From Lytechinus pictus (taxonomy: Eukaryota): DNA of 64,000 nucleotides. Within the stretch, counting starts at the first letter, position 1, and every line of letters starts with the position of its first letter. Shown here piece after piece: positions 4,850 to 49,059 of this stretch. The translations under genes were made by a program, and so were the position numbers. Location of the stretch: positions 12,898,001 through 12,962,000 of the forward strand of contig NC_087251.1 of the NCBI RefSeq assembly GCF_037042905.1, in the 5' to 3' direction. The notes beneath the pieces were generated by a model that saw nothing but the letters and a program-made list of their open reading frames with translations, was not told the DNA's origin and searched no databases.

Positions 4850-6188
4850 TTTTTGTCTCACCTGCATAGCAGAGTGAGACTATAGGCGCCGCTTTTCCAG
4901 CGGCGGCGGCGTCAACACCAAATCTTAACCTAAGGTTAAGTTTTTGAAATGACAGCATAACTTAGAAAATATATAGACCTAGTTCATGAAACTTGGCCAT
5001 AAGGTTAATCAAGTATTACTGAACATATTGCCTGAGTTTCAGGTCACATGAGTAAGGTCAAAGGTCATTTAGGGTCAATGAACTTAGACCATGTTGGGGG
5101 AATCAACATCAAAATCTTAACCTACATGTAAGGTTAAGTTTTTGAAATGTCATCATAACTTAGAAAATATATGGACCTAGTTCATGAAACTGAGGTTAAT
5201 CAATTCTTACTAAACATACTGCCTGAGTTTCACGTCACATGACCAAGGTCAAAGGTAATGTAAGGTCAATGAACTTTGGCCAAGTTGGGGGTATTTGTTG
5301 AATTACCATCATAACTTTCAAAGTTTATTGGTCTAGTTCATAAAACTTGGACATAAGAGTAATCAAGTATCACTGAACATCTTGTGCGCATTTCATGTCA
5401 CATGACCAAGGTCAAAGGTCAATGAACTTTGGCCATAATGGGGATATCTGTTGAATTACCATCATAACTTTGAAAGTTTATGGATCTGACTCATGAAACT
5501 TGGACATAAGAGTAATCAAGTATCACTGAACATCTTGTGCAAGTTTCAGGTCACATGATCAAGGTCAAAGGTAATGTAAGGTCAATGAACTTTGGCCAAG
5601 TTGGGGGTATTTGTTGAATTACCATCATAACTTTGAAAGTTTATTGGTCTAGTTCATAAAACGTGGACATAAGAGTAATCAAGTATCACTGAACATCCTG
5701 TGCGATTTTCAGGTCGCATGACCAAGGTCAAAGGTCAATGAACTTTGGCCATGGGGGGGGGGGTTATCTGTTGAATTACCATCATAACTTTGAAAGTTTA
5801 TGGATGTGATTCATGAAACTTGGACATGAGAGTAATCAAGTATTTTTGAAAATTTCGTCCGAGTTTCAGGTCACATGACCAAAGTCAAAAGTCATTTAAG
5901 GTCATTGAACTTTGGCCATATTAGAGGTAATTATTAGATTGCTCTCATACCTTTTAAAGTTTATAGATACATGTATAGTGTATAATATGTGGATATAGGG
6001 GTAATCAAGTTTCACTGACAAGTTTTAGGTCACATGATCAAGGTCAAATGTCAATGAACGTAGTATTGTATCATTATATGAATGGTGTTTTTTGTGACTA
6101 ATTATTTGATAGTAGTTTTCAAAGTCAGCACTGCTGCTATATTGAATCGCGTGATGCAGGTGAGACCGCCAGAGGCATTCCACTTGTT
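4850..6188 (+). mobile_element. Helentron-associated (HINE/DINE-1-like) non-autonomous element with internal tandem array, copy 1
   Basis: T-run start; 5' subTIR gtctcacctgca with short IR gagtgagac; (CGG)n; about 120-140-bp tandem units; 3' subTIR tgcaggtgagac; ends ccacttgtt. Class assignment is inferred from architecture. Confidence 0.75.
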
Positions 6189-9960: not shown

Positions 9961-10540
9961 TTAAAAGGCAAGTCCACCCCAGTAAAATATTGATTTGAAT
10001 AAATAGAGAAAAATTAAACTTGCATAACACTGAAAATTTCATAAAAATCGGTTGTAAAATAAGAATGTTATGGCATTTTAAAGTTTCGCTTATTTTTCAC
10101 AAAGTGATATGCACAACTCTGTGACATGCAAATGAGTCAGTCGATGATGTCCATCACTCACTATTTATTTTGTTTTTTATTGTTTGAATTATACAATATT
10201 TCATTTTTTTACAGATTTGACCATAGGGACCGACTTGACTGAATCATATAGTATTAAACAATGCTAATTCCACATGTTCAGGGAGAAACTAATCACTGTT
10301 TCACTTGACAATGAGAAACAAAATACAAAAGAAATAGTGAGTGGATGATGTCATCAGTCTCCTCATTTGTATACCAACCAGGATGTGCATATAACTGTTT
10401 TGTGAAATTAAGCGAAACTTTAAAATGTCATAACTTTCTTATTTTACATCCGATTTTGATGAAATTTTCAGTGTTATGCTTGTTGGATTTTTTACTTTTT
10501 ACTCATATTATTTTTTTATTGGGGTAGACTTGTCCTTTAA
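9961..10540. mobile_element. TTAA-flanked MITE
   Basis: ttaaaaggcaagtccacccc ... ggggtagacttgtcctttaa; inverted homologue of 32024-32579. Confidence 0.82.
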
Positions 10541-17630: not shown

Positions 17631-18191
17631 TTAAAGGGATGGTCGGGGCTGAAAATATTTATATCTAAATAAATAGAGTAAAATTCACAGAGCAAAATGC
17701 TGAAAACTTCATAAAAATCAAATAACAAATAATGAAGTTATTGAATTCTAAAGTTTATCAATATTTTGTGAAAACAGTTATATGCATATCGTCATGAGTA
17801 TTCATTAGGTGGGCTGATGATGTCACATCCCCACTTTCCTTTTTCTTATGTTATTACATGAAATCATAATTGTTTCATTTTTTTCATATGTTTGTAAATT
17901 ACATGTATGTCTCTCCATTATGATGATATAATTTGCGGCAATAAATAACTAATGCACTTAATCAGTTGAATAAAACTGATTTCATATAATGAAATATAAA
18001 AGAGCAAATGGGGATATGACATCATCAGCCTACCTAATGAATATTCATGAAGACATGCCTAGAACTGTTTCACTGGAATAATGCAAATCTTGAAAATTCA
18101 ATAACTTTGTTATTTGTTATCCGATTTTTATCAAATTTCCAGCATTTTGCTCTGTGAATTTTACTCTATCCGGCCTAGATCATCCCTTTAA
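17631..18191. mobile_element. TTAA-flanked MITE (Kolobok-like)
   Basis: ttaaagggatggtc ... gatcatccctttaa with long subterminal inverted repeats. Confidence 0.8.
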
Positions 18192-24429: not shown

Positions 24430-25449
24430 TTTTTGTCTCGCCTGCATAGCAGAGCGAGACTATAGGCGCCGCTTTTCCGACGGCGGCGGCGGCGTCAACA
24501 TCAAATCTTAATCTAAGGTTAAGTTTTTGAAATGACATCATAACTTAGAAAGTCTATGGACCTAGTTCATGAAACTTGGAAATAAGGTTAATCAAGTATT
24601 ACTGAACATCCTGCCTGAGTTTCAGGTCACATGACCAAGGTCAAAGGTCATTTAGGGTCAATGAACTTTGACCATGTTGGGAGAATTATTTTCAAAATCT
24701 TAACCGAAGGTTAAGTTTTAGAAATGACATCATAACTTAGAAAGTATATGGACCTAGTTCATGAAACTTGGGCATAAGGTTAATCAAGTATAAGTAAACA
24801 TCCTGCTCGAGTTTCAGGTCACGTGACCAATGTCAAAGGTCATTTAGGGTCAATGAACTTTGGTCAAGTTGGGGGTATTTGTTGAATTACTATCATAACT
24901 TTGAAAATTTATGGATCTAGTTCATGAAACTTGGACATAAGATTAATCAAGTATTAGTGAACATCCTGCCTGAGTTTCAGGTCACATGACCAAGGTCAAA
25001 GGTCATTTAGGGTCAATGAACTTTGGCCAAGTTGGATGTATTTGTTGAATTACCATCATAACTTTGAAAATTTATAGATCTAGTTCATAAAACTTGGGAT
25101 ATAAGAGTAATCAAGTATCACTGAACATCCCCTGTGAGTTTCAGGTCACAAAACCAAGGTCAAAGGTCAGTTAAGGTCAATAAACTTAGGCCATGTTGGG
25201 GTAATTGTTGAATTGCCATCATAACTTTGAAAGTTTATAGATAGAGTGAATGAAATGTGGACATGGGTGTAGTTGACAAGTCTTATGTCACCGTTCAAAT
25301 GTCATTTATGGTCAATGAACGTGGTATTATGTCATTATATGAACAGTGTTTTTGTGAATGATTATTTTATAGTAGTTTTCAAAGTTAGCACTGCTGCGAT
25401 ATTAAAATCGCGTAATGCAGGCGAGACTGCCAGAGACGTTCCACTTGTT
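24430..25449 (+). mobile_element. HINE-like element, copy 2
   Basis: Same termini and tandem unit as 4850-6188. Confidence 0.78.
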
Positions 25450-31899: not shown

Positions 31900-32920
31900 T
31901 TCTTGCTTTCTTGCACTCTCTCATCTCTCCCTCTCTCTCTTTCCTCCCTCTCCCACTTTCTCCCTGTCCATCTATCATTCTCTTTTTTTTCTTTCCTGCC
32001 CAGGGTTGCTTGTCACTCTTCTCTTAAAGGACAAGTCCACCCCAACAAAAAGTTGATTTTGATAAAAAGACAAAAATCCAAAGAGCATAACATTGACAAT
32101 TTTATCAAAATTGGATGTAAAGTAGAAAGTTATGACACTTTAAATTTTGCTTAATTTCACAAAACAGTTATATGCACATCGTGGTTGGCATTATATGAAA
32201 CATGAAATACAGTGTATTCTAATGTTATCCTCATTGTCAAGTGAAACAACGATTAATTCCTACCTGAACATGGGAATTAGCATTATTTAATACTTTATGA
32301 TTCAGCCAAGTTGGTTCATATTGTCAAATCTGCAAAAAATGAAATATTGTATGATTCAAACAATAAAAAACAAAAGAAATTAGAGGGACATCATACGACT
32401 TCCTCATTTCCATGTCACTGACTTGTGCACATCACTGTTTTATGAAAAATAAGCGAAACTTTAAAATGTCATAACTTTCTTATTTTGCATCCGATTTTGA
32501 TGAAATTTTCAGTGTCATGCTAGTTTTATTTTCTCTATTTATTCAAATCAAATTTTTTTTGGGTGAATTTGACCTTTAATGTCTCCCTCTCTACTCTTCC
32601 TTTTATCCCCTCCCTTCATTTTCTATGAAAATAAGTCTCTCTGTTTTTATACTATCTATGTTTTTATACTATCTATGTTTGTCTGATCGCTACATTTGTT
32701 CTCTTCTCCCTCCTCTCTCTTTTTCCCTTTCCTCTCTGTCTCCCCTTCTCTTCATAAAAGTATCTTCTGGCATATATCCCCCCATCCATCCTTTTTTGTT
32801 GTTCTTGCTCCAGGTCTCTTTCTTTTAATGTTCTATCTCTCTTATCACTCTCATAACTCTTTCTTCCTCCGTCTTTTTCCTCTCTTTCTCCATGGTGTCC
32901 ATTTATCACTATCACTCTTT
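31900..32920. repeat. Pyrimidine-rich low-complexity tract split by the 32024-32579 MITE
   Basis: CT-rich sequence on both sides of the MITE. Confidence 0.75.
32024..32579. mobile_element. TTAA-flanked MITE
   Basis: ttaaaggacaagtccacccc ... gggtgaatttgacctttaa. Confidence 0.8.
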
Positions 32921-38207: not shown

Positions 38208-39556
<1,349 letters not shown>

Positions 39557-40768
39557 GCAAATTATTTTCTCTGAAAAAGCATGACTGTGTATGTTGATTA
39601 ACCAATCTTATTGTATTTATGATTTTAAACTGCATAAAACTAGTCTTAAACAAGCATTTTAAAATTAAACTTATTTTTTAATGCATTTTCTACCAATATC
39701 CATGCCATGGACAGTCCTGCATTTTTCATCTTCAGTTTTTTAACATTATCATAATTTTTTTGGATCATTTTTCTTCACTTCTTTCATTTTTTTTTCAATA
39801 TCGATTTCAGTGGTTTTTTTACATTCGATTTATTACACAAGCTTGTAGAATACAAATATATAAACATGCTTAATGAAAATTGAAAGTGAATTTTTTTTCA
39901 ATGGTTTCTTGGTATAAGTGAGCTTGCAGTTGAATTATGAAAGCAATTTTTTTTAAAGACCCATTTATTTTCTTTTTAGTGCTAATAATATTGTTCATCT
40001 TAATTTTACACTGAAAGCAAGAGTAAAATCCTTTCTTTGATGTGAGTCAAAATACTTGGCATTTCGTTCATGCATGTACAATAAAGAGGAACAGATCAGA
40101 AATAATATGTCCAGAAACTCATCTAGGTGAATCTGAATACTCTCATAGATTTTGTAATAAAAACATAAAGAACATTATAAGAAATGCTTGTGAGCTATCT
40201 CATTTGTTTGTAAGGTCATTGTCTTCTATTAACATTATTCTTCTGAATTTTAACATTAAGATTTAAATTTTATTCTTTTCATATATGTGACACTTTAGTA
40301 TAAAAATAAAGAAAAACTGAAGAATCATAACATAACAGAATCCAATTTTCTGTTTTTTTGCTCTGCACATGCTGTAGACTAGAAGTTTGAAACCATCAAA
40401 ATGATAACAAGATATAGGCCTAACCATAATTTTCAGAATCATACATGTAAAGTTTCAAATCCACAACTACATTATGTAAAGGAAAAAATAATTGGCCATT
40501 GAAGTATTTGAATATCTCAGAAAGTGATAATACTTTTTCTATCAAAGACAATGATGTTAAGTCCAATTATACTTTTTCAGAATTTTTAAAGGCATTTTCT
40601 TTAAATAGGAAAGAGGAAAATGTTTAAACTTATTTGATATGTCTATTTCCTTAAAGAGCAATTAGCATCATCATGTGGCTTAAATAACACAATTAATTAT
40701 TAGTGTTGGTTTACTGAACTGATTTATCATATGCTATTCCAACCTATGATCATATGGTTCTTTTATGT

Positions 40769-41060
40769 GAAAGCATCGTGGTGTAACAATTCTGACTCTC
40801 ACCTTGTAAAAAAGTAAAAAAAAGGGGTTGTGTGTTCGAATCCCACCATGGCCTAGCATCCTTTGGCGAGGCATCATTCCACAATATGCCACTCTCCACC
40901 CAGGTGTTTAATGGGTAACTGGTAGGATGCAAAAGCCTATGTACAATAGTATGTCTAGCAATTGAGTCTTGAAACTCTTGTTGAAATGCTCCCCAGGCTT
41001 GCCATTATCCGATGACCATAATAATTACATTATGCACCCCCTAAGCGCTTAGAAACATAA
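40769..41060 (+). mobile_element. tRNA-derived SINE
   Basis: A-box-like gtggtgtaac, B box gttcgaatcc at 40834, central ctctccacccaggtg...aatgggta, 3' end running into (TAA)n. Related heads at 29344 and about 60518. Confidence 0.7.
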
Positions 41061-41152
41061 ATGATAATAATAATTATAAAAAATAATAATAGTATAATAA
41101 TGATAATATAATAATAATGATAATGATAATGGTAATAATAATGATAATAATG

Positions 41153-41196
<44 letters not shown>

Positions 41197-41258
41197 GATG
41201 ATAATGATAATATTATTATCATTATTAGTATTATTATCATTATTATTATTGTTATCAT
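41060..41258. repeat. (TAA/TGA)n microsatellite switching to (TTA/TCA)n
   Basis: Direct reading; the switch occurs near 41210. Confidence 0.95.
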
Positions 41259-41498
41259 AAATTATTTAAATCTTTTCCTCTACTATCCTATTTGCTGTAA
41301 AGAGGCTACCAAACAGCTATATTTACATTTCTGTTTTGCTCTGCCCGCTTGTTATGATAGAATTTGGTAATAAAATTTAATTCGCTATTATGAAGAATTA
41401 TATGTACATGTAATGTATGTTTAAAGCATACTGTGTATTTCATAAAATGCACTGAAGGTTAATATCGTAAAATTATCTAAATATATTTATTTTATAAG

Positions 41499-42090
41499 AT
41501 ACCGCGTTCTCACTTAGCCCAGCTTGCGGATCAGACTCGCCTTGCGAGTCAGCCTCGGCTCGTGGGGTCTTCTCCTTCGCGTTCACATTTAGCCCCAGGT
41601 TGCGGAGCAGGCTCCCCTCGCTTGTCAGTTCTGCCAATTACCCACAATCCTCTGCAATAAATATGTAAACCGACTCTGGCGCGAAAAGTAGGCCTGTGCG
41701 AATGCATGTACTATGGAGGGAGTTCATATACCAGTGGTACAGTGCAGTGAACTGATGGAAATCGGTTTCACGATACACAATTCGTAAGGTAATATGACTG
41801 TGTATAAAATCGAGTGTACACTGGACGGACTGCATGCATAGAAAAACAAAACTCGAATAAAGCGTGTGAGATACACCGGAAGTTCGCTATCAATTGCCAG
41901 GGTAGACTCGGCTTTCTGTCCACACTGCAAAAAATTGCCGTGTCTCCCCCAGCTCGCAGGTCTGATCCTACCTTATTGCTGGGGCAGAAAAGGAGAGTCA
42001 GACTTGCCTCGCGGGGCTGATAATTTCCCTTCACATTGGGGAAAAAAGTGGGTCTAAGTCACGAGCTGGGGCTAAGTGAGAATGTGGTAT
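41499..42090. mobile_element. Harbinger-like MITE (related fragment at 21430-21718)
   Basis: ataccgcgttctcacttagccccagct / agctggggctaagtgagaatgtggtat. Confidence 0.8.
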
Positions 42091-42700
42091 GAGTTTGTTT
42101 TATGCTTGTAATTATTATTTTGATGGCTCTATTCAGCTGAATAATCATACTTCTACAATAGATGTGAACCTCCTCACCCGAATGGTGCCATTTACCCCCC
42201 ATGATACAAGCACTGCTGAATGATGTTTCGTAAAGCTATTTTTGTAAATACTATGTAAGACTTTACGCATAACTGGTAACCCTTATCGATGCCAAATCAT
42301 ATTCTCAATCATTTTGATTCCCATTTGCTAAAGTTGAAATCCGATCTCTGTATATTTAAATTACTTTTATATAGCATCTGAAATGCAAATTTCGTAATTT
42401 GGCAATTTGATTAGGGTTATGGGAATTTCACACCTACATAGTTAAAACTGGAAAAATCGGAAAATCGTTTAAAGGGATGGTCCCCACTGAAAATATATCT
42501 AAATAAATAGAGTAAAATTCACAGAGCAAAATGCTAAAAATTTCACCAAAATCGGATAACAAAGAACAAAGTTATTGAATTTTAAAGATTTGCATTATTC
42601 TGGTGAAACAGTTCTAGGCATGTCATGAATATTCATTAGATGGGCTGACGATGTCATATCCCCACTTGTTCTTTTGTATTTTATTATATAAAATTAGGTT

Positions 42701-43027
42701 GATGTGGAAGAGGTTCATCGTGGTGAAGGATTGAGTAGAAGAAATAACCAGTTGTCTCACTGTATCAAACGTAGTAGGAAAGAGACGTTTCGTCTGCAAG
42801 CTGCTAGACTTCATCAGGCAATGAGCAAAGACGCTGCTGCGCATGGGTTATAGCGTCGGGAGCTATTGTCTGGCTCCACTCGGGTGTGAGCCGCGCTGTG
42901 ATTGGCCGAAGCCGCTGGCCAATCAGGGTCCGCTCTAGTGCTTGGTGCCCGCTGGAGCGTGCACCGTGCGCTGTGACTGGCGGATGCAGCCGGCCAATCA
43001 GCGTCCGCGCTGGTGTCAGGCACCCGC
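42701..43027 (-). mobile_element. Penelope-like pseudo-LTR / retrozyme-like fragment with 12-bp TSD
   Basis: taaaattaggtt at 42689-42700 and 43028-43039; GC-rich; minus strand carries CTGATGA-A-GTCT...AGAC-GAAACGT. Confidence 0.65.
42756..42825 (-). ncRNA. Hammerhead ribozyme-like motif (type I topology, imperfect helix I)
   Basis: CUCAUUGc-CUGAUGA-A-[GUCUaGCA gcu UGCAGAC]-GAA-[ACGU 12-nt loop ACGU]-U-ugaua-CAGUGAG; folded by eye. Confidence 0.45.
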
Positions 43028-44354
43028 TAAAATTAGGTTTATTCAAAATTTTCCACCAAGAACTAAAACAGTTGGATTGACAACTGATTAAAGTGCATTA
43101 GTTATTTATTGCCGCAACTTGTTTCATCATAACTGAGACACATCATTTACACATGTATGAAAAAATGAAACATTTATGATTTCATGTAATAACATAAGAA
43201 AAAAGAAAGTGGGTATGTGTCACATCATCACCCCACCTAATGAATATTCACGGAATGTGCATATAACTGTTTTCACAAAATATTTATAAACTTTAAAATT
43301 CAATAACTGTTATTTGTGTCCGATTTTGATGAAATTTTCAGCATTTTGCCCAATGAATTTTACTCTATTTATTTAGATATAAAAATTTTCAGCCCGGACC
43401 ATCCCTTTAATAATATTTAGGCACAAGAACAGAGCAAACTAATCAGTATTGAACTAGAATCAATGACTATTTGTTTCATGTAATGCCTCACAGTTCACCA
43501 GTCATGTGTTAAATTGTGTATATTCATTTCAATTTTCATAATGATCTATTTTGAATATTCATATGATTTATGAATAAAAAGTAATGAGCATCAGAGAATT
43601 TTCTACGATTAAACACTTTCTTAATATTAAATCAAGCTAGCACTGCATGCTGACACACAAGTTAGACATATTCATTTCTTATTCCTGTGATATATCATAG
43701 GGGTCATAGAACTAGATATTCTGGATATTCAGTGTAACATTACAGCATAACATGATACGCTTCTGCTATGAAAAGTGCGTTCACCCACCAATGCTGTATA
43801 TCATGATACTGTGCTAGAAGCAATCATTAGGGGCACTATCCATAATAGAACGTACTGTACATGTATCATTAATGTATGATGTAGGCTCAGGAACAAACAT
43901 GTACAATATGCTAATTAATGTTGTACAGCTACATTTACATACATGTATGTAAAAAAACAAAAACAATAGTGATACCTAAATGAACATTGAGTGTGTTTAA
44001 ATAATGTTAAAGGAAATTTGTCCTTTCACATCTTACTATCTAAACTCAGTCAAAAGAGCTATCTGGTCCCTTATCACACTCTTCAAGGAGTGAGACAAAC
44101 TCTCATTTTCGAGTGAGATTTGCATCTTTCTAGAGTGATTTTACCTCTTTCTGGAGTGAAAGTGTCTAAAAAGATGCAGAGTTCACTTCAGAAGGAGCTA
44201 TATAATTCACTCTATAAGGAAGTACAGTTCACTCCAAAGGGATTAGTCCCATCTGTCACTCTGAGAGGAGTTTGATTACAGACCAGATTATCTCTTTTGC
44301 ATTTAGAGAGTAAGTGCTTTTTATGGTTTAATTGAAAATGATATTTTCAGTCCA

Positions 44355-44492
44355 GGGTCCCGTAACACAAAGGTTAGCAATTGATCGTACGCTTGATTTA
44401 CAGGATTGATTGTACATTGTAGTCAATGTAATCAATCGTAGAAAAATGAAAAATGTTCTACACTCATTGCTATGCTTTGTGTTATGGGCCCC
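44355..44492. mobile_element. Short MITE
   Basis: gggtcccgtaacacaaag / ctttgtgttatgggcccc. Confidence 0.7.
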
Positions 44493-44940
44493 ATGTGTTA
44501 TTTATCCTTCCATTCATTCCAAATTACCTTTAATTTTGATATGGGCTATTTTGATAATTTGAGGGCTAAATTGCCTTTGAATTAGCCCCTAACCAAGAAT
44601 GCACATCAAAGTGACCACCCAAGTATTTGTAATTGAAATTTAAAAAAATTCTAAATGAATTTGGTTGAAAATGAGTATTTGCTGAGTAAAAAGCAAACAA
44701 GCAATAAAACAAAACCACAGAGCATCAGGTGGAAGTGTATTTTTCAAAGCAATAAACAAATTTGTTTTTTGTCTGGATTTCCTTATTTTATCAAGTTTTG
44801 TTGAAGTAATGACTTTCAGTTCTTTTAAAATAATTTCTCAATGCCTTTTCTCTAGTTTAGCTTTAATTGTATTCCGCTTGTATTAGCAATTGAATTATTC
44901 TGGTATTTCAGATTATCGTTCTTTTCCCAATTCATTTTAA

Positions 44941-45132
<192 letters not shown>

Positions 45133-45924
45133 TGAGTATCAAAGTCACAATCTTTGGGGAGCATTGGAGGCAAATAGTGATTTTGTAGATCGTGTTATTT
45201 GGCTAAATAGAAGGAAAAAAATAAAATAAAAGAAGATGGAATTAAGATGTATTTGCCTTTTTCCGGCAACCCATTTTATTGGATAACATGATTATTTTCC
45301 CCCTGTAAGAAAGAATTTAATTATTTTCATTCTTTTGTGATGCACCTTACGATTCATAAATCTAAAGTGCGCACAGTCAGCCTTGTTGATGCGCTCACTT
45401 CCATGCGCGCAAACACACGTGCATACAAAATATGCATGTACACATGCTCAGTGGTATACCCTGAGGGAGAGAGCTCAACTGTGCAGTGGAAAAATAAAAA
45501 TGCATGTTTGCAGTGCAACGGAAAATAAAATTTGTATGCAGCACAAAATGAATCAAATATTGAATGGCTTTCAATCAATCAAATGACAAGAATCTTTGAA
45601 TGAGTTGTATGATTTGATATCTTTTTGGTAATTCCAATCAACAAAATTTCTTTTAATTTTTGATATCGCAATCTAGCTTACGACATTATTCCTTAGCCGT
45701 AGCTAAACAAGCTCAGCACATGCACAAAAAATGAAAAGACAATTGTAAACATTACTTCTTATCGATTACAAAAGGTGTCAAAACTTTAAATTACAACATA
45801 TTTTAGAAAGATTATAAGCCCCCCAAAAAAGAAGTCAAGAGTATTTTCACATTTTCAGTGCATATTTAGCATAGAAGACGCTTTTGTTATAAATATTGTT
45901 ATTTAAAAAAAAGAAACTATATAT

Positions 45925-46326
45925 TTAAAGATAAATTCCAGTTTTGGTAACGATCTCAAAATGACTTTTTACAAAATCTAATATAATGACCACCCAAGTG
46001 TCTGTTTGTATGAATAAAAAATATGTGCCAAAGGATTCTGGAAGAAATTGTGTAATTGCTGAGAAATAAGCAAAATAAGCGCGGATTCTGTCACTTCCGT
46101 CGGGTCTTTATTCCAGCAATAATAATACACTGTCCCACGTGCGCTTATCTGTGTTGGTGATCTTCAGTGTGAACATTTTTCAGCGTAGATTTCAAGATTT
46201 CACAAAGTTCAGTTTATGTAACTGTACCAGATCTAGATCCTCGATGATATACTGACAATTAAGCCTGGTTTTACAGACTTTCTCAAGAAATCAGTGTTTA
46301 CTGCAAATACTGGCATTTCTCTTTAA
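45925..46326. mobile_element. TTAA-flanked MITE
   Basis: ttaaagataaattccagtttt ... aatactggcatttctctttaa. Confidence 0.65.
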
Positions 46327-49059
46327 GGGTATTTCACTCTTGATTAATCAACCATCCGCTTTATTCAGCACTTGGAATCACAAGTTGAGGGGATTTCGGG
46401 GATATGAAATTTGACCACTGGCGTCATTTTAGCAGGGAAGTTCTCCAGTGAGCTTTCATATTGGCCTTTTCCCCGGTGAAGTTTGCCGGAGAAACCGTTT
46501 CACCTGGGAAGTAAAGTTATCCACCTCTCGAGGTGGAAAGGTTTGCCGGGGAAGTTCTCCTGTGTACCTTTCATACTGGACGCTTTCCCCTTCGCTGACG
46601 AACATCACCGGCGAAGCTTACCAGGGAAAAGCGCAATATGAAAGGGGTATTAGAGCAAAGGCCATTCAGAACTATCTTTTCAGCTATGTAAGTCTTTCAT
46701 ACCTGCCAAATACGAAAAACATTATTTTTGGTCAGTGTTAAACAAGTACTTGTATTATCCCTGAAAAATTCTGCAAATCGGTAGGCCAATGTTGAGATTA
46801 ATTACACCTTGCTTGTTCACGTAATACGGGAAATATCTACATTCTTGGTTCCATATTTAATAAGACAGGAGGCTGAAAGGAATATGGAACCAGAATGTAA
46901 ATATTTCCTGTATTCCATAAGAACATGCAGGGTGTAACGGTTTTATCACTTTAAGTGTACCCTTATTGTAGAATAAGGGGAAATCACGACAATGAACTGA
47001 AACCCTGCATTTTGTGAGTAAATCTTGAAAGGAATCCTTCATGCCACAGTAAAAAGGGAGTGCATTTAACCATTGATATTGTTTGGCAAATAGTAGTGTG
47101 CAGCGCGATGCTTGAGTATGCTGTATTAAACATGCTACGTAATATGGCCTCATATTACGTGGTTGACTTGAAATCAGTTCTGGGCATGCGCCTAACAATG
47201 AAAACAACATTGAAACAACAGTCGAACATCAAATATATGATACAGGCTCATTACCTGTTTGATCTCTTTGACCAAGTAATGCGAGATTGTCTTTCAGATA
47301 AATTGACCAATCAGAATACAAATTCATGAATACGAGGGCCCACTAAGTGATAAATTATGATATTTCCAGAACATTTGCTGGGATATATCCAAGGTTGAGG
47401 TGATATAATAAGTGTGAAAACACACTGTTTCAAGAACATACTAACTTTTAGGCAAGAGTAATGCATGTCTTATGCTATAGCAATGCAATCATCTTGTTGC
47501 TTGGTTATAACCAAGGGAACTTTATATTTTGTCCAGGTGGATATACCTATGTATACACAAAATAAATTATTGGTATTTTGGGGCCTGAACGAGTTTTGTT
47601 TACATACATTTTTGTAATCAGGCTGGTGTGAATATGCCCATTTTCTCCATTTATTTTGGGTACAAAATGGTTCATTAGCTAAATTCAGTTCCAGTGTTTG
47701 GAATATAAATGGAGGAAGGACTTTATTGTCTCTATTTGATCTAGTGATCTACTTTTGGTCCAGCTCCATATGCTGGTTCTCATCAGCCTAAAGTTTTACT
47801 CAAATTTTATAATATCTTTAACTCCTTTTAAAAAAAGTTCAATCTCAAGATTAACAAAGTTATGTATCTATTGACCTGGCGGATTCTTACTTGAACATGG
47901 ACATTGACATTCAGTTAGAAAGCCTTTGTAATTTTGGCTCAATGAATACCTTGCAGGTATGGACAATATCATGATTTGTAAATCATCCTGACCCCAATTG
48001 GAATGCATCTTCATGCGTAAATTAGCTTTGATAATTCCCAAATATTTTTTTTCCTATCAAAATGGGGAAAATTATCCCAAGATGAACACCACAAAAAAAA
48101 CGCTATTTGTGTCCTCATTACAAATAATGAATTTTTAAGATTTGAGATAATTTGCCAGATCAGAAATAGTAGGATAGTTCAGAAAGCCTGGCTGATTGGG
48201 ACAAGCCTCACATTCAAATAGCTCTGTCTGACCCAAATTCTAGTGACCTGGGAAGGTCATTTGGGGCAAGTGTCTGGCGTAGCTAGCCTTTGCTACAGCT
48301 CCCCATCAAAAGGGAAATAAGGTGATAAACTGTAGTTCATTGTAAAAATTAACACTGAAATTCTTAAGCTAAATGAATTCATCTTGATATGTGATCCCTA
48401 TGGTGCCATTACTTATATTGGTTTTAAAATGATGTAAAATACAAATAATAACACAATGCAATAGATTCTCCTTGAAAGTATTAGAAATAACATTTATTTT
48501 AAAAATAAATGAAGAAATATAGAATTGTATCATCTGGTAATTCTAAGGTAAATATCAACCATTCCCTGTAACTGTTGGTGCAATAAAACAACATTTGCCA
48601 AATATTTTTTTTCAGTGTTTCCATAGCTCGAAAACAAATTTCCTGAAACTGAACCAAAATTTCCCTAATTTCAGAGGAATTTCCTGGAATCTTTTTTTTT
48701 AAAAATCATACAAATATACAGCGAGTCTGAACTTGGGCCTAGTGACTAAATTTAAAGAATTTAAGATCTTAATTTTCATGCACTTCCAATTGGAACAAAA
48801 TAAGTCACTAATGTGAGCAAAAAGTGCAAAAATATTTCTTTTCCTGAGCCTTCCACTCTTCCTGATATTCCAGGAAGAGTGGAAACACTGGTTTCTTTGT
48901 ACATACAATACGTGCCACGAGACCAGAGCAAATCTCTATCTATGATGGATGTCCTGTCTGTGAGGTGATTGATTTGATTCCATAGACCTAATTTACTTGT
49001 GAATTGTTAACTTATTAATGTTGACAAATAGTATCTAAAGAATGTTTAGGGATGGTCTT

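Follow-up and report, generated by a model that had tools for sequence, protein, structure and literature searches.

Minimal hammerhead ribozymes occur by the thousands in the end repeats of Penelope-like elements (PLEs) in animal genomes, sea urchins included (PMC4209133). In the published table of these motifs, two entries come from S. purpuratus, and a helix I of 2 bp appears in the rows for Culex, D. virilis, and Oikopleura (PMC4209133). PLE copies are further known to share their 3' ends, to be truncated at the 5' end, and to occur in inverted pairs (PMC8969392; bioRxiv 2021.04.23.441226; PMC3846280), and DKG is the reverse transcriptase (RT) motif named for this group (bioRxiv 2021.04.23.441226). 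The kind of element described herein is already known and has been listed for sea urchins since 2014; the particular family of the present insert was not found in literature searches, whose limited coverage makes this weak evidence.

In the present study, the window, that is, the whole 64-kb stretch of DNA, was analyzed, and we consider it very likely that a 327-bp insert within a MITE (Table 1) is a dispersed repeat with a minimal hammerhead, most likely the 5'-truncated pseudo-LTR (pLTR) of a PLE, and that the ribozyme is probably inactive at this locus.

Table 1. Features of the insert, its hammerhead motif, and the surrounding MITE (positions in the window).
Feature	Position	Strand	Basis or remark
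Inserted element, probable 5'-truncated 3' end (pLTR) of a PLE	42701..43027	-	repeat depth, sharp end at 42698-42701, contig past 43028
Minimal type I hammerhead	42782..42819	-	core letters, family depth, published consensus (PMC4209133)
G2.2 C2.1	42819-42818	-	hammerhead part
CUGAUGA	42817-42811	-	hammerhead part
Extra A	42810	-	hammerhead part
Helix II	42809-42792	-	G10.1 (42809) pairs with C11.1 (42792); 7 bp with a bulged A
GAAA	42791-42788	-	hammerhead part
Palindromic CG (15.2-16.2), no loop 3	42787-42786	-	hammerhead part
U16.1 C17	42785-42784	-	hammerhead part
Position 1.1, then C1.2	42783-42782	-	1.1 is U at this locus but G in most of the family depth
Target-site duplication, copy 1, TAAAATTAGGTT	42689..42700		AT-rich site inside the MITE; exact repeat, empty site in other MITE copies
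Target-site duplication, copy 2, TAAAATTAGGTT	43028..43039		exact repeat
Host MITE with long inverted ends	about 42469..43410	.	intronic, within an MSK-like kinase gene
GC-rich tandem unit, opposed CCAAT boxes in each unit	42893..43027	-	75 bp plus a 60-bp second copy, 47/60 alike
TATAA, TATA-box-like	42848..42852	-	motif letters
Initiator-like TCATTG	42819..42824	-	predicted start A at 42822, 30 nt below TATAA, five bases above C3
Six-codon ATG frame (MNLFHI), truncated at the 3' end of the element	42701..42718	-	possible start of the parent's ORF
Second ACGU (42772-42769) and CAGUGAG-A-CAA strand	42752..42772	-	can pair with the core and 42819-42828; variable in the family

The insert has in common with the minimal hammerhead of metazoan PLE pLTRs the CUGANGA box followed by one extra nucleotide, which stands unpaired between A9 and position 10.1, the G10.1-C11.1 pair, a long helix II, the GAAA box, the palindromic 15.2-16.2 step without loop 3, the UH triplet that follows it, and a short helix I (PMC4209133). 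Also, the published copies are mostly single and dispersed, like the one at the locus, with some in inverted pairs (PMC4209133). The flanking and helix sequences of the sea-urchin examples differ from those of the insert, the insert has lost the 1.1-2.1 pair, and the second ACGU with a complementary distal strand downstream, as found in the insert, was not met in the accessible part of that report (PMC4209133). At the level of letters, the minus-strand motifs named in the initial annotation (CUGAUGA, the extra A, helix II, GAAA, ACGU, the second ACGU, and CUCAUUG/CAGUGAG) are all present.

As judged from the sequence, the predicted cut falls after GAAACGUC, between 42784 and 42783. Cleavage after the distal GUU, the triplet named in the initial annotation, is not supported: both the family and the unrelated loci described below pair helix I directly after GAAACGUC. 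In the family, plus-strand C at 42783, corresponding to G1.1 opposite C2.1, accounts for 95.5, 97.7, and 98.0% of the depth in three DNA runs. Among the variant rows listed, the other majority change in the core is plus-strand G at 42813, the free N7 position (C7 in the family), and the family helix I comprises at least 2 bp, G1.1-C2.1 and C1.2-G2.2. At the locus itself, U1.1 faces C2.1, and the closing pair of helix I has a probability of 0. The earlier suspicion that the base of helix I does not pair cleanly, and that this copy might be inactive or need a dimer, is supported: the copy is probably inactive, and its minimal hammerhead would be of a kind that needs a dimer. The stability of the 111-nt fold was no better than that of shuffled sequences (z +1.25; 180 of 200 fold as well, and the centroid is almost unpaired), and folding stability was rejected as support for the ribozyme. 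An Rfam search, as proposed in the initial annotation, gave no match at the gathering score in the whole window and none at E values up to 10 over 42600-43100. Eight other matches to the expression CTGANGA...GAAA are present in the window, all without the CGUH ending, and the only one of the eight that was folded, at 46595, forms no hammerhead.

Loci with the same core were also obtained from metagenome contigs, using a pattern that fixed the core and the ends of helix II and left helix I free. None of the 13 loci belongs to the family of the insert, BLAST matches being confined to the core. Position 1.1 forms a Watson-Crick pair with 2.1 in 12 of them, by three types of pair (A-U, U-A, and C-G), and helix I reaches at least 2 bp in 11; in four slid registers, the 1.1-2.1 pair was found in 0, 1, 2, and 2 of the 13 loci. 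With the sample reduced to a single locus per family (six families), the observed total length of helix I was reached in 1 of 720 permutations. A clear PLE-type RT accompanies two of the 13 loci, which represent one element (L005/L012). In this tandem element the core lies between the RT ORF and ORF1; the RT carries the DKG motif and matches Pfam RVT_1 at 22 bits, below the 29.6-bit cut-off, its Atlas neighbours have RT domains, and a GIY-YIG domain was not found in the element. At locus L013, GIY-YIG occurs in 17% of the members of a 0.90 cluster, a possible endonuclease remnant that serves as a lead only, and at 10 of the 13 loci no PLE ORF was seen. A tblastn search of the 64-kb window with the L012 RT and the L013 fragment gave no match.

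The insertion itself, proposed initially as 327 bp with a 12-bp target-site duplication (TSD), is confirmed by the exact repeats and by the empty site in other MITE copies. The TSD encloses the insert, is exact over 12 bp without extension on either side, and consists of A/T at 10 of 12 positions, in agreement with the variable-length duplications at AT-rich targets of PLEs. The 64-kb window contains no second copy of the insert, and at the locus there is no tandem array and no inverted or partial tandem pLTR pair. The sister MITE (17631-18191; 86-89% alike, opposite orientation) had been named as an empty site. It does hold a single diverged copy of the site, at 17973-17984 with 9 of 12 bases alike, but the adjoining 35 bp or so are missing, and it is therefore an imperfect empty-site control. 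Sequencing runs were also aligned to 42600-43140 at 80% likeness, namely three DNA runs (X1, X3, and X6; organism A) and one raw RNA run (X23; organism B), which are 4 of the 24 runs listed and may come from related species (best share of words 0.34). In all four runs, a joint leads from 42690 to 43030 and skips 339 bases (327+12), and the loose ends behind 42700 read like 43040 onward. The skip has GT..AG ends, and its reading as an intron was rejected because the joint stands in three DNA runs. Position 42690 is G in about 96% of the MITE depth (X1) and A at the locus, in both repeat copies, which indicates that the duplication copied the local variant of its own site. Among the listed contig pieces, none bridges a junction of the insert. 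The description of the block as GC-rich applies to the insert overall (57%, against 35% in the window) and to 42831-43027 (66%), but 42701-42830 reaches only 44%.

The depth of the family is distributed unevenly along the insert. In X1, the summed contig depth is 31-93 thousand over 42714-42846 versus 3.5-8 thousand over 42866-43017, and in X3 and X6 it falls in the same direction, toward the 5' end of the insert; contig depth is not copy number, and most of the listed pieces have a depth of 20-95. This pattern suggests that the minus-strand 3' end is present in many copies and the 5' part in fewer. The coordinates of each record were taken along its own strand, with which records 6, 13, 20, and 21 agree. 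At least five pieces (records 1, 9, 10, 16, and 17 of the 24 listed) stop at 42698-42701, with other sequence beyond, and thus mark a common 3' end. Records 9, 10, and 16 are confined to the stretch from 42698/42700 to 42821/42822 and are flanked by other sequence at either end, and record 11, an X3 contig, holds two inverted copies. At the opposite end, record 5 (contig X1-5; 270 nt, depth 2745, 9 differences in 180) continues 82 nt past 43028, and among the listed pieces records 13, 14, and 20 likewise run past 43025-43028. In other words, 5'-truncated copies with a common 3' end, a feature of PLEs, are found in the family, and the 327-bp copy appears to derive, by 5' truncation, from a longer element. 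The insert had been described as a retrotransposed, non-autonomous, ribozyme-bearing element; retrotransposition, the TSD, and the Penelope-type hammerhead are supported, but a self-contained 327-bp non-autonomous or retrozyme unit is not, since the copy looks 5'-truncated and contig X1-5 runs beyond it.

Upstream of the hammerhead, the insert has a promoter-like anatomy. Three CCAAT boxes are intact at the locus, and the fourth (42977) is intact in 83-88% of the family depth; judging from these motifs, the tandem unit may act as a promoter. The TATAA motif is lengthened by a TA insertion in 27% of the depth in X1, 0.4% in X3, and 69% in X6. A test devised after the motifs had been seen found their combination in 0 of 20,000 shuffles. 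Similar signals have been described in the pLTRs of Adineta vaga, which carry a TATA box, an Inr-like motif, and the first 12 codons, compared with TATAA, an Inr-like motif, and six codons in the insert; the TSD is 8-10 bp in A. vaga and 12 bp here (PMC3846280). The pLTRs of A. vaga and D. virilis are described as holding promoter signals and the first codons of the ORF, and as occurring solo and inverted (PMC3846280, PMC2377424); the promoter-like motifs and the six-codon frame of the insert may correspond to these. The D. virilis promoter is internal and TATA-less, whereas the insert has TATAA (PMC2377424). Paired CCAAT boxes in a tandem 75-bp unit are a feature of the insert, unlike the A. 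vaga and D. virilis pLTRs as far as the accessible accounts describe them.

A further resemblance is observed with Poseidon PAc of Anolis carolinensis, which also has an AT-rich target and a hammerhead near the ORF start (PMC11167929). The start of reverse transcription in PAc lies, by subtraction, 85-92 nt below the cut, in AC-rich sequence, and the distance from the predicted cut to the end of the insert is 83 nt. Uncleaved RNA is the main template of PAc, whose ribozyme needs a protein, and no RNA-seq ends are reported at the cut (PMC11167929); run X23 is likewise without a pile-up of ends. The PAc ORF starts at stem II, and the candidate ATG of the insert lies 18 nt from its 3' end; an ATG at A6-U7-G8 exists only in the locus copy (C7 in the family), unlike the PAc ORF start (PMC11167929). 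At least three short family copies (records 9, 10, and 16 of the listed pieces) start at 42821-42822, and the depth is at least as high over the hammerhead core as over the 3' end. These observations fit the copying of uncleaved RNA from that start, as inferred from few records. The short copies begin at the predicted transcription start and not at the cut site, which fits uncleaved RNA as the template in vitro (PMC11167929).

We propose the following scenario for the origin of the insert, in which we infer the identity of the parent, its enzymes, its promoter, and the cleavage. A GIY-YIG endonuclease encoded by the element would have nicked the AT-rich site in the MITE, and the Penelope RT would have primed at the nick with uncleaved RNA of the element as its template, at a point about 83 nt below the cut site of the hammerhead. 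The RT would then have copied the first codons, the hammerhead, the start site, and the promoter, and would have stopped after 327 nt; the subsequent repair would have left the 12-bp duplication. Cleavage by the family hammerhead would fall after GAAACGUC, on a helix I of 2 bp, and would require either a partner copy, through pairing of the palindromic ACGU, or the protein of the element.

No RT or GIY-YIG ORF of the insert's family was found; family pattern scans of viral contigs and prokaryote genomes returned 0 loci. The lack of such an ORF in the window and in the pattern scans would be consistent with a parent that was itself a non-autonomous, non-coding derivative, either retrozyme-like or a parasite consisting only of the pLTR, and moved in trans by Penelope enzymes, and pLTR sequences do suffice for trans mobilisation (PMC3846280). 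The length of 327 bp would also suit an animal retrozyme monomer (150-450 bp); such retrozymes are flanked by long TSDs (PMC7229834) and, according to a preprint, are derived from pLTRs (bioRxiv 10.64898/2026.07.22.740005). Like the insert, animal non-LTR retrozymes are non-coding, measure a few hundred bases, and combine a type I hammerhead with a long TSD; however, they are tandem, have a GC content below 50%, and carry canonical hammerheads, minimal variants being assigned to PLEs, whereas the insert is a truncated single copy with 57% GC and a minimal core (PMC7229834; bioRxiv 10.64898/2026.07.22.740005). Tandem monomers with a hammerhead in each are absent from the window, and in place of a canonical hammerhead with a 6-bp helix I and contacts between loops 1 and 2, the family has a helix I of 2 bp. 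Moreover, the 82 extra letters of record 5 give no second piece on 42701-42782 among the listed pieces, unlike a 327-bp head-to-tail unit, and an ATG frame is cut off after six codons at the end of the insert. A non-coding parent of this kind is unlikely in our view. The same promoter-like CCAAT and TATA signals, with the tandem enhancer-like unit, recall an LTR, and the lack of an Rfam hit would suit a solo LTR, a DIRS terminal repeat, or a SINE in which the hammerhead letters are incidental. LTR elements have TSDs of 4-6 bp and TG...CA ends, DIRS elements have no TSD, and tRNA-derived SINEs have a tRNA head and an A-rich tail. The insert has a 12-bp TSD, no TG...CA ends, and variable 5' ends in its family; ARAGORN found no tRNA gene at 40000-46000, and there is no A-rich tail. 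The truncation pattern further weakens such readings and the family majority restores the 1.1-2.1 pair, so that an origin of this type is barely credible, and the truncated PLE pLTR is retained as the preferred reading.

The sequence downstream of the core raises a different question, namely whether the family hammerhead works as a monomer. In that case, the second ACGU would provide helix III in cis, with a cut after GUU (42770-42768) and a distal helix I of 7-10 bp; alternatively, the fold would be a selected off-switch. The pairing of ACGU with ACGU and of CUCAUUG with CAGUGAG, as described in the initial annotation, is possible and beats shuffles, but a catalytic register of this form would have no 1.1-2.1 pair and would tie up A13/A14. 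This distal fold is the minimum-energy fold of both the 111-nt and the 86-nt stretches, and the ACGU/ACGU helix has a probability of 0.5-0.7 in all four contexts folded. In its strict form it recurs in 2 of 20,000 shuffles, under looser definitions in 7, 51, 155, 218, and 973 of 10,000, and the 7-bp distal helix alone in 47 of 2,000; however, the definition was made after the fold had been seen. In addition, U1.1 cannot pair with C2.1 in this register, A13/A14 are paired with a probability of 0.4-0.7, and the strict fold is present in 0 of the 13 metagenome loci. Within the module, coverage is lowest over the distal strand, which has a 2-nt insertion in 7-20% of the DNA depth and in 55 of 68 RNA reads (organism B). 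The probability of the distal helix drops to 0.11 when the whole insert is folded and to 0 when folding begins at the predicted start. Both the monomer and the selected off-switch are thus highly improbable, and the distal fold may be an inhibitory fold or an accident.

A more specific hypothesis, which is hazardous and in our judgment very unlikely, would make the second ACGU and the 10-bp distal helix a cis-encoded context switch that times the cleavage by the Penelope hammerhead. Because the distal helix uses bases upstream of 42822, its formation would be limited to transcripts that read through from an upstream tandem copy, and RNA from the element's own TATA promoter, starting five bases above the core, would fold differently. 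If this were true, the cut in promoter-started RNA would remove a capped leader of 39 nt. A comparable cis control of a Penelope hammerhead was not met in the accessible parts of the literature on these elements. The family constitutes a natural set of copies that bears on the role of these ribozymes, and in which the alternative fold is open to covariation.

With regard to the host gene, the exon at 44941-45132 has its best match in human MSK1/RPS6KA5 (1vzo, E 1.2e-31; next best 1.5e-18), and the exons on both sides of the insert belong to one plus-strand kinase. A splice donor (GT) near 38358 and a splice acceptor (AG) near 44943 place the insert in a plus-strand intron, so that the minus-strand hammerhead is antisense to the pre-mRNA, as had been claimed. 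Taken with U1.1 and the lack of a partner copy in the 64-kb window, this position suggests a copy that probably persists as a passive remnant. Given its mutation and its antisense orientation relative to the host gene, it is by itself of small importance. A search of sequencing runs listed no RNA run as a carrier of the sequence, a result that carries no weight as to expression. In RNA run X23 (about 6 in 100 of the run), 10-45 reads per direction cover the hammerhead half and 0-3 the GC-rich half, and these reads, whose ends do not pile up, are uninformative on cleavage or strand. Several variants in X23 are almost confined to a single mate direction, a pattern suggestive of one decayed copy carried within a host transcript.

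The base at 42783 of the insert (U1.1), which is unable to pair with C2.1 and is G in the majority of the family, might not be unique to the window copy. In one DNA sequencing run of organism A (X3), one piece of a contig with two inverted family copies (record 11) is identical to the window over 42703-42825, with 0 differing letters. This sequence identity suggests that U1.1 may be common to a small subfamily. Subfamilies exist among the MITEs, as approximately 35 bp of the host MITE adjoining the insertion site (43046-43078) are absent in the sister MITE at 17631-18191 and present in other copies. Older MITE relatives, 69-78% alike to the host MITE, were observed at 9977-10524 and 32062-32556.

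Among the metagenome loci found with the hammerhead-core pattern, two (L005 and L012) represent one tandem element, comprising ORF1, with a weak match to GDSL lipase (E 0.002), a DKG-motif reverse transcriptase without GIY-YIG, and a minimal hammerhead located approximately 130 nt upstream of ORF1. This element resembles endonuclease-less Penelope-like elements. In L004, L007 and L011, inverted repeats of 200-300 bp contain or adjoin the hammerhead, which is the inverted-pair arrangement known from Penelope-like elements.

Other features of the window are listed in the table. The long open frame is a LINE-type retrotransposon within the MSK gene region. In addition, a GC-rich hairpin with CTGACGAA...GAAA at 46580-46640 (+) was considered, and no hammerhead fold was obtained for this candidate. 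The hairpin at 42866-42886 was compared with the histone stem-loop, which its 11-nt interior does not match.

Other repeats, an open frame and a hairpin in the window
Feature	Position	Strand	Remark
Open frame, 712 aa	49025-51163	+	Strong RVT_1 match, E 3e-37
Related 153-192-bp tandem repeat, three arrays	4931-5968, 24503-25264, 38797-39260		
Hairpin, stem closed by GGCTC/GAGCC, 11-nt interior	42866-42886		Between CCAAT units and TATAA
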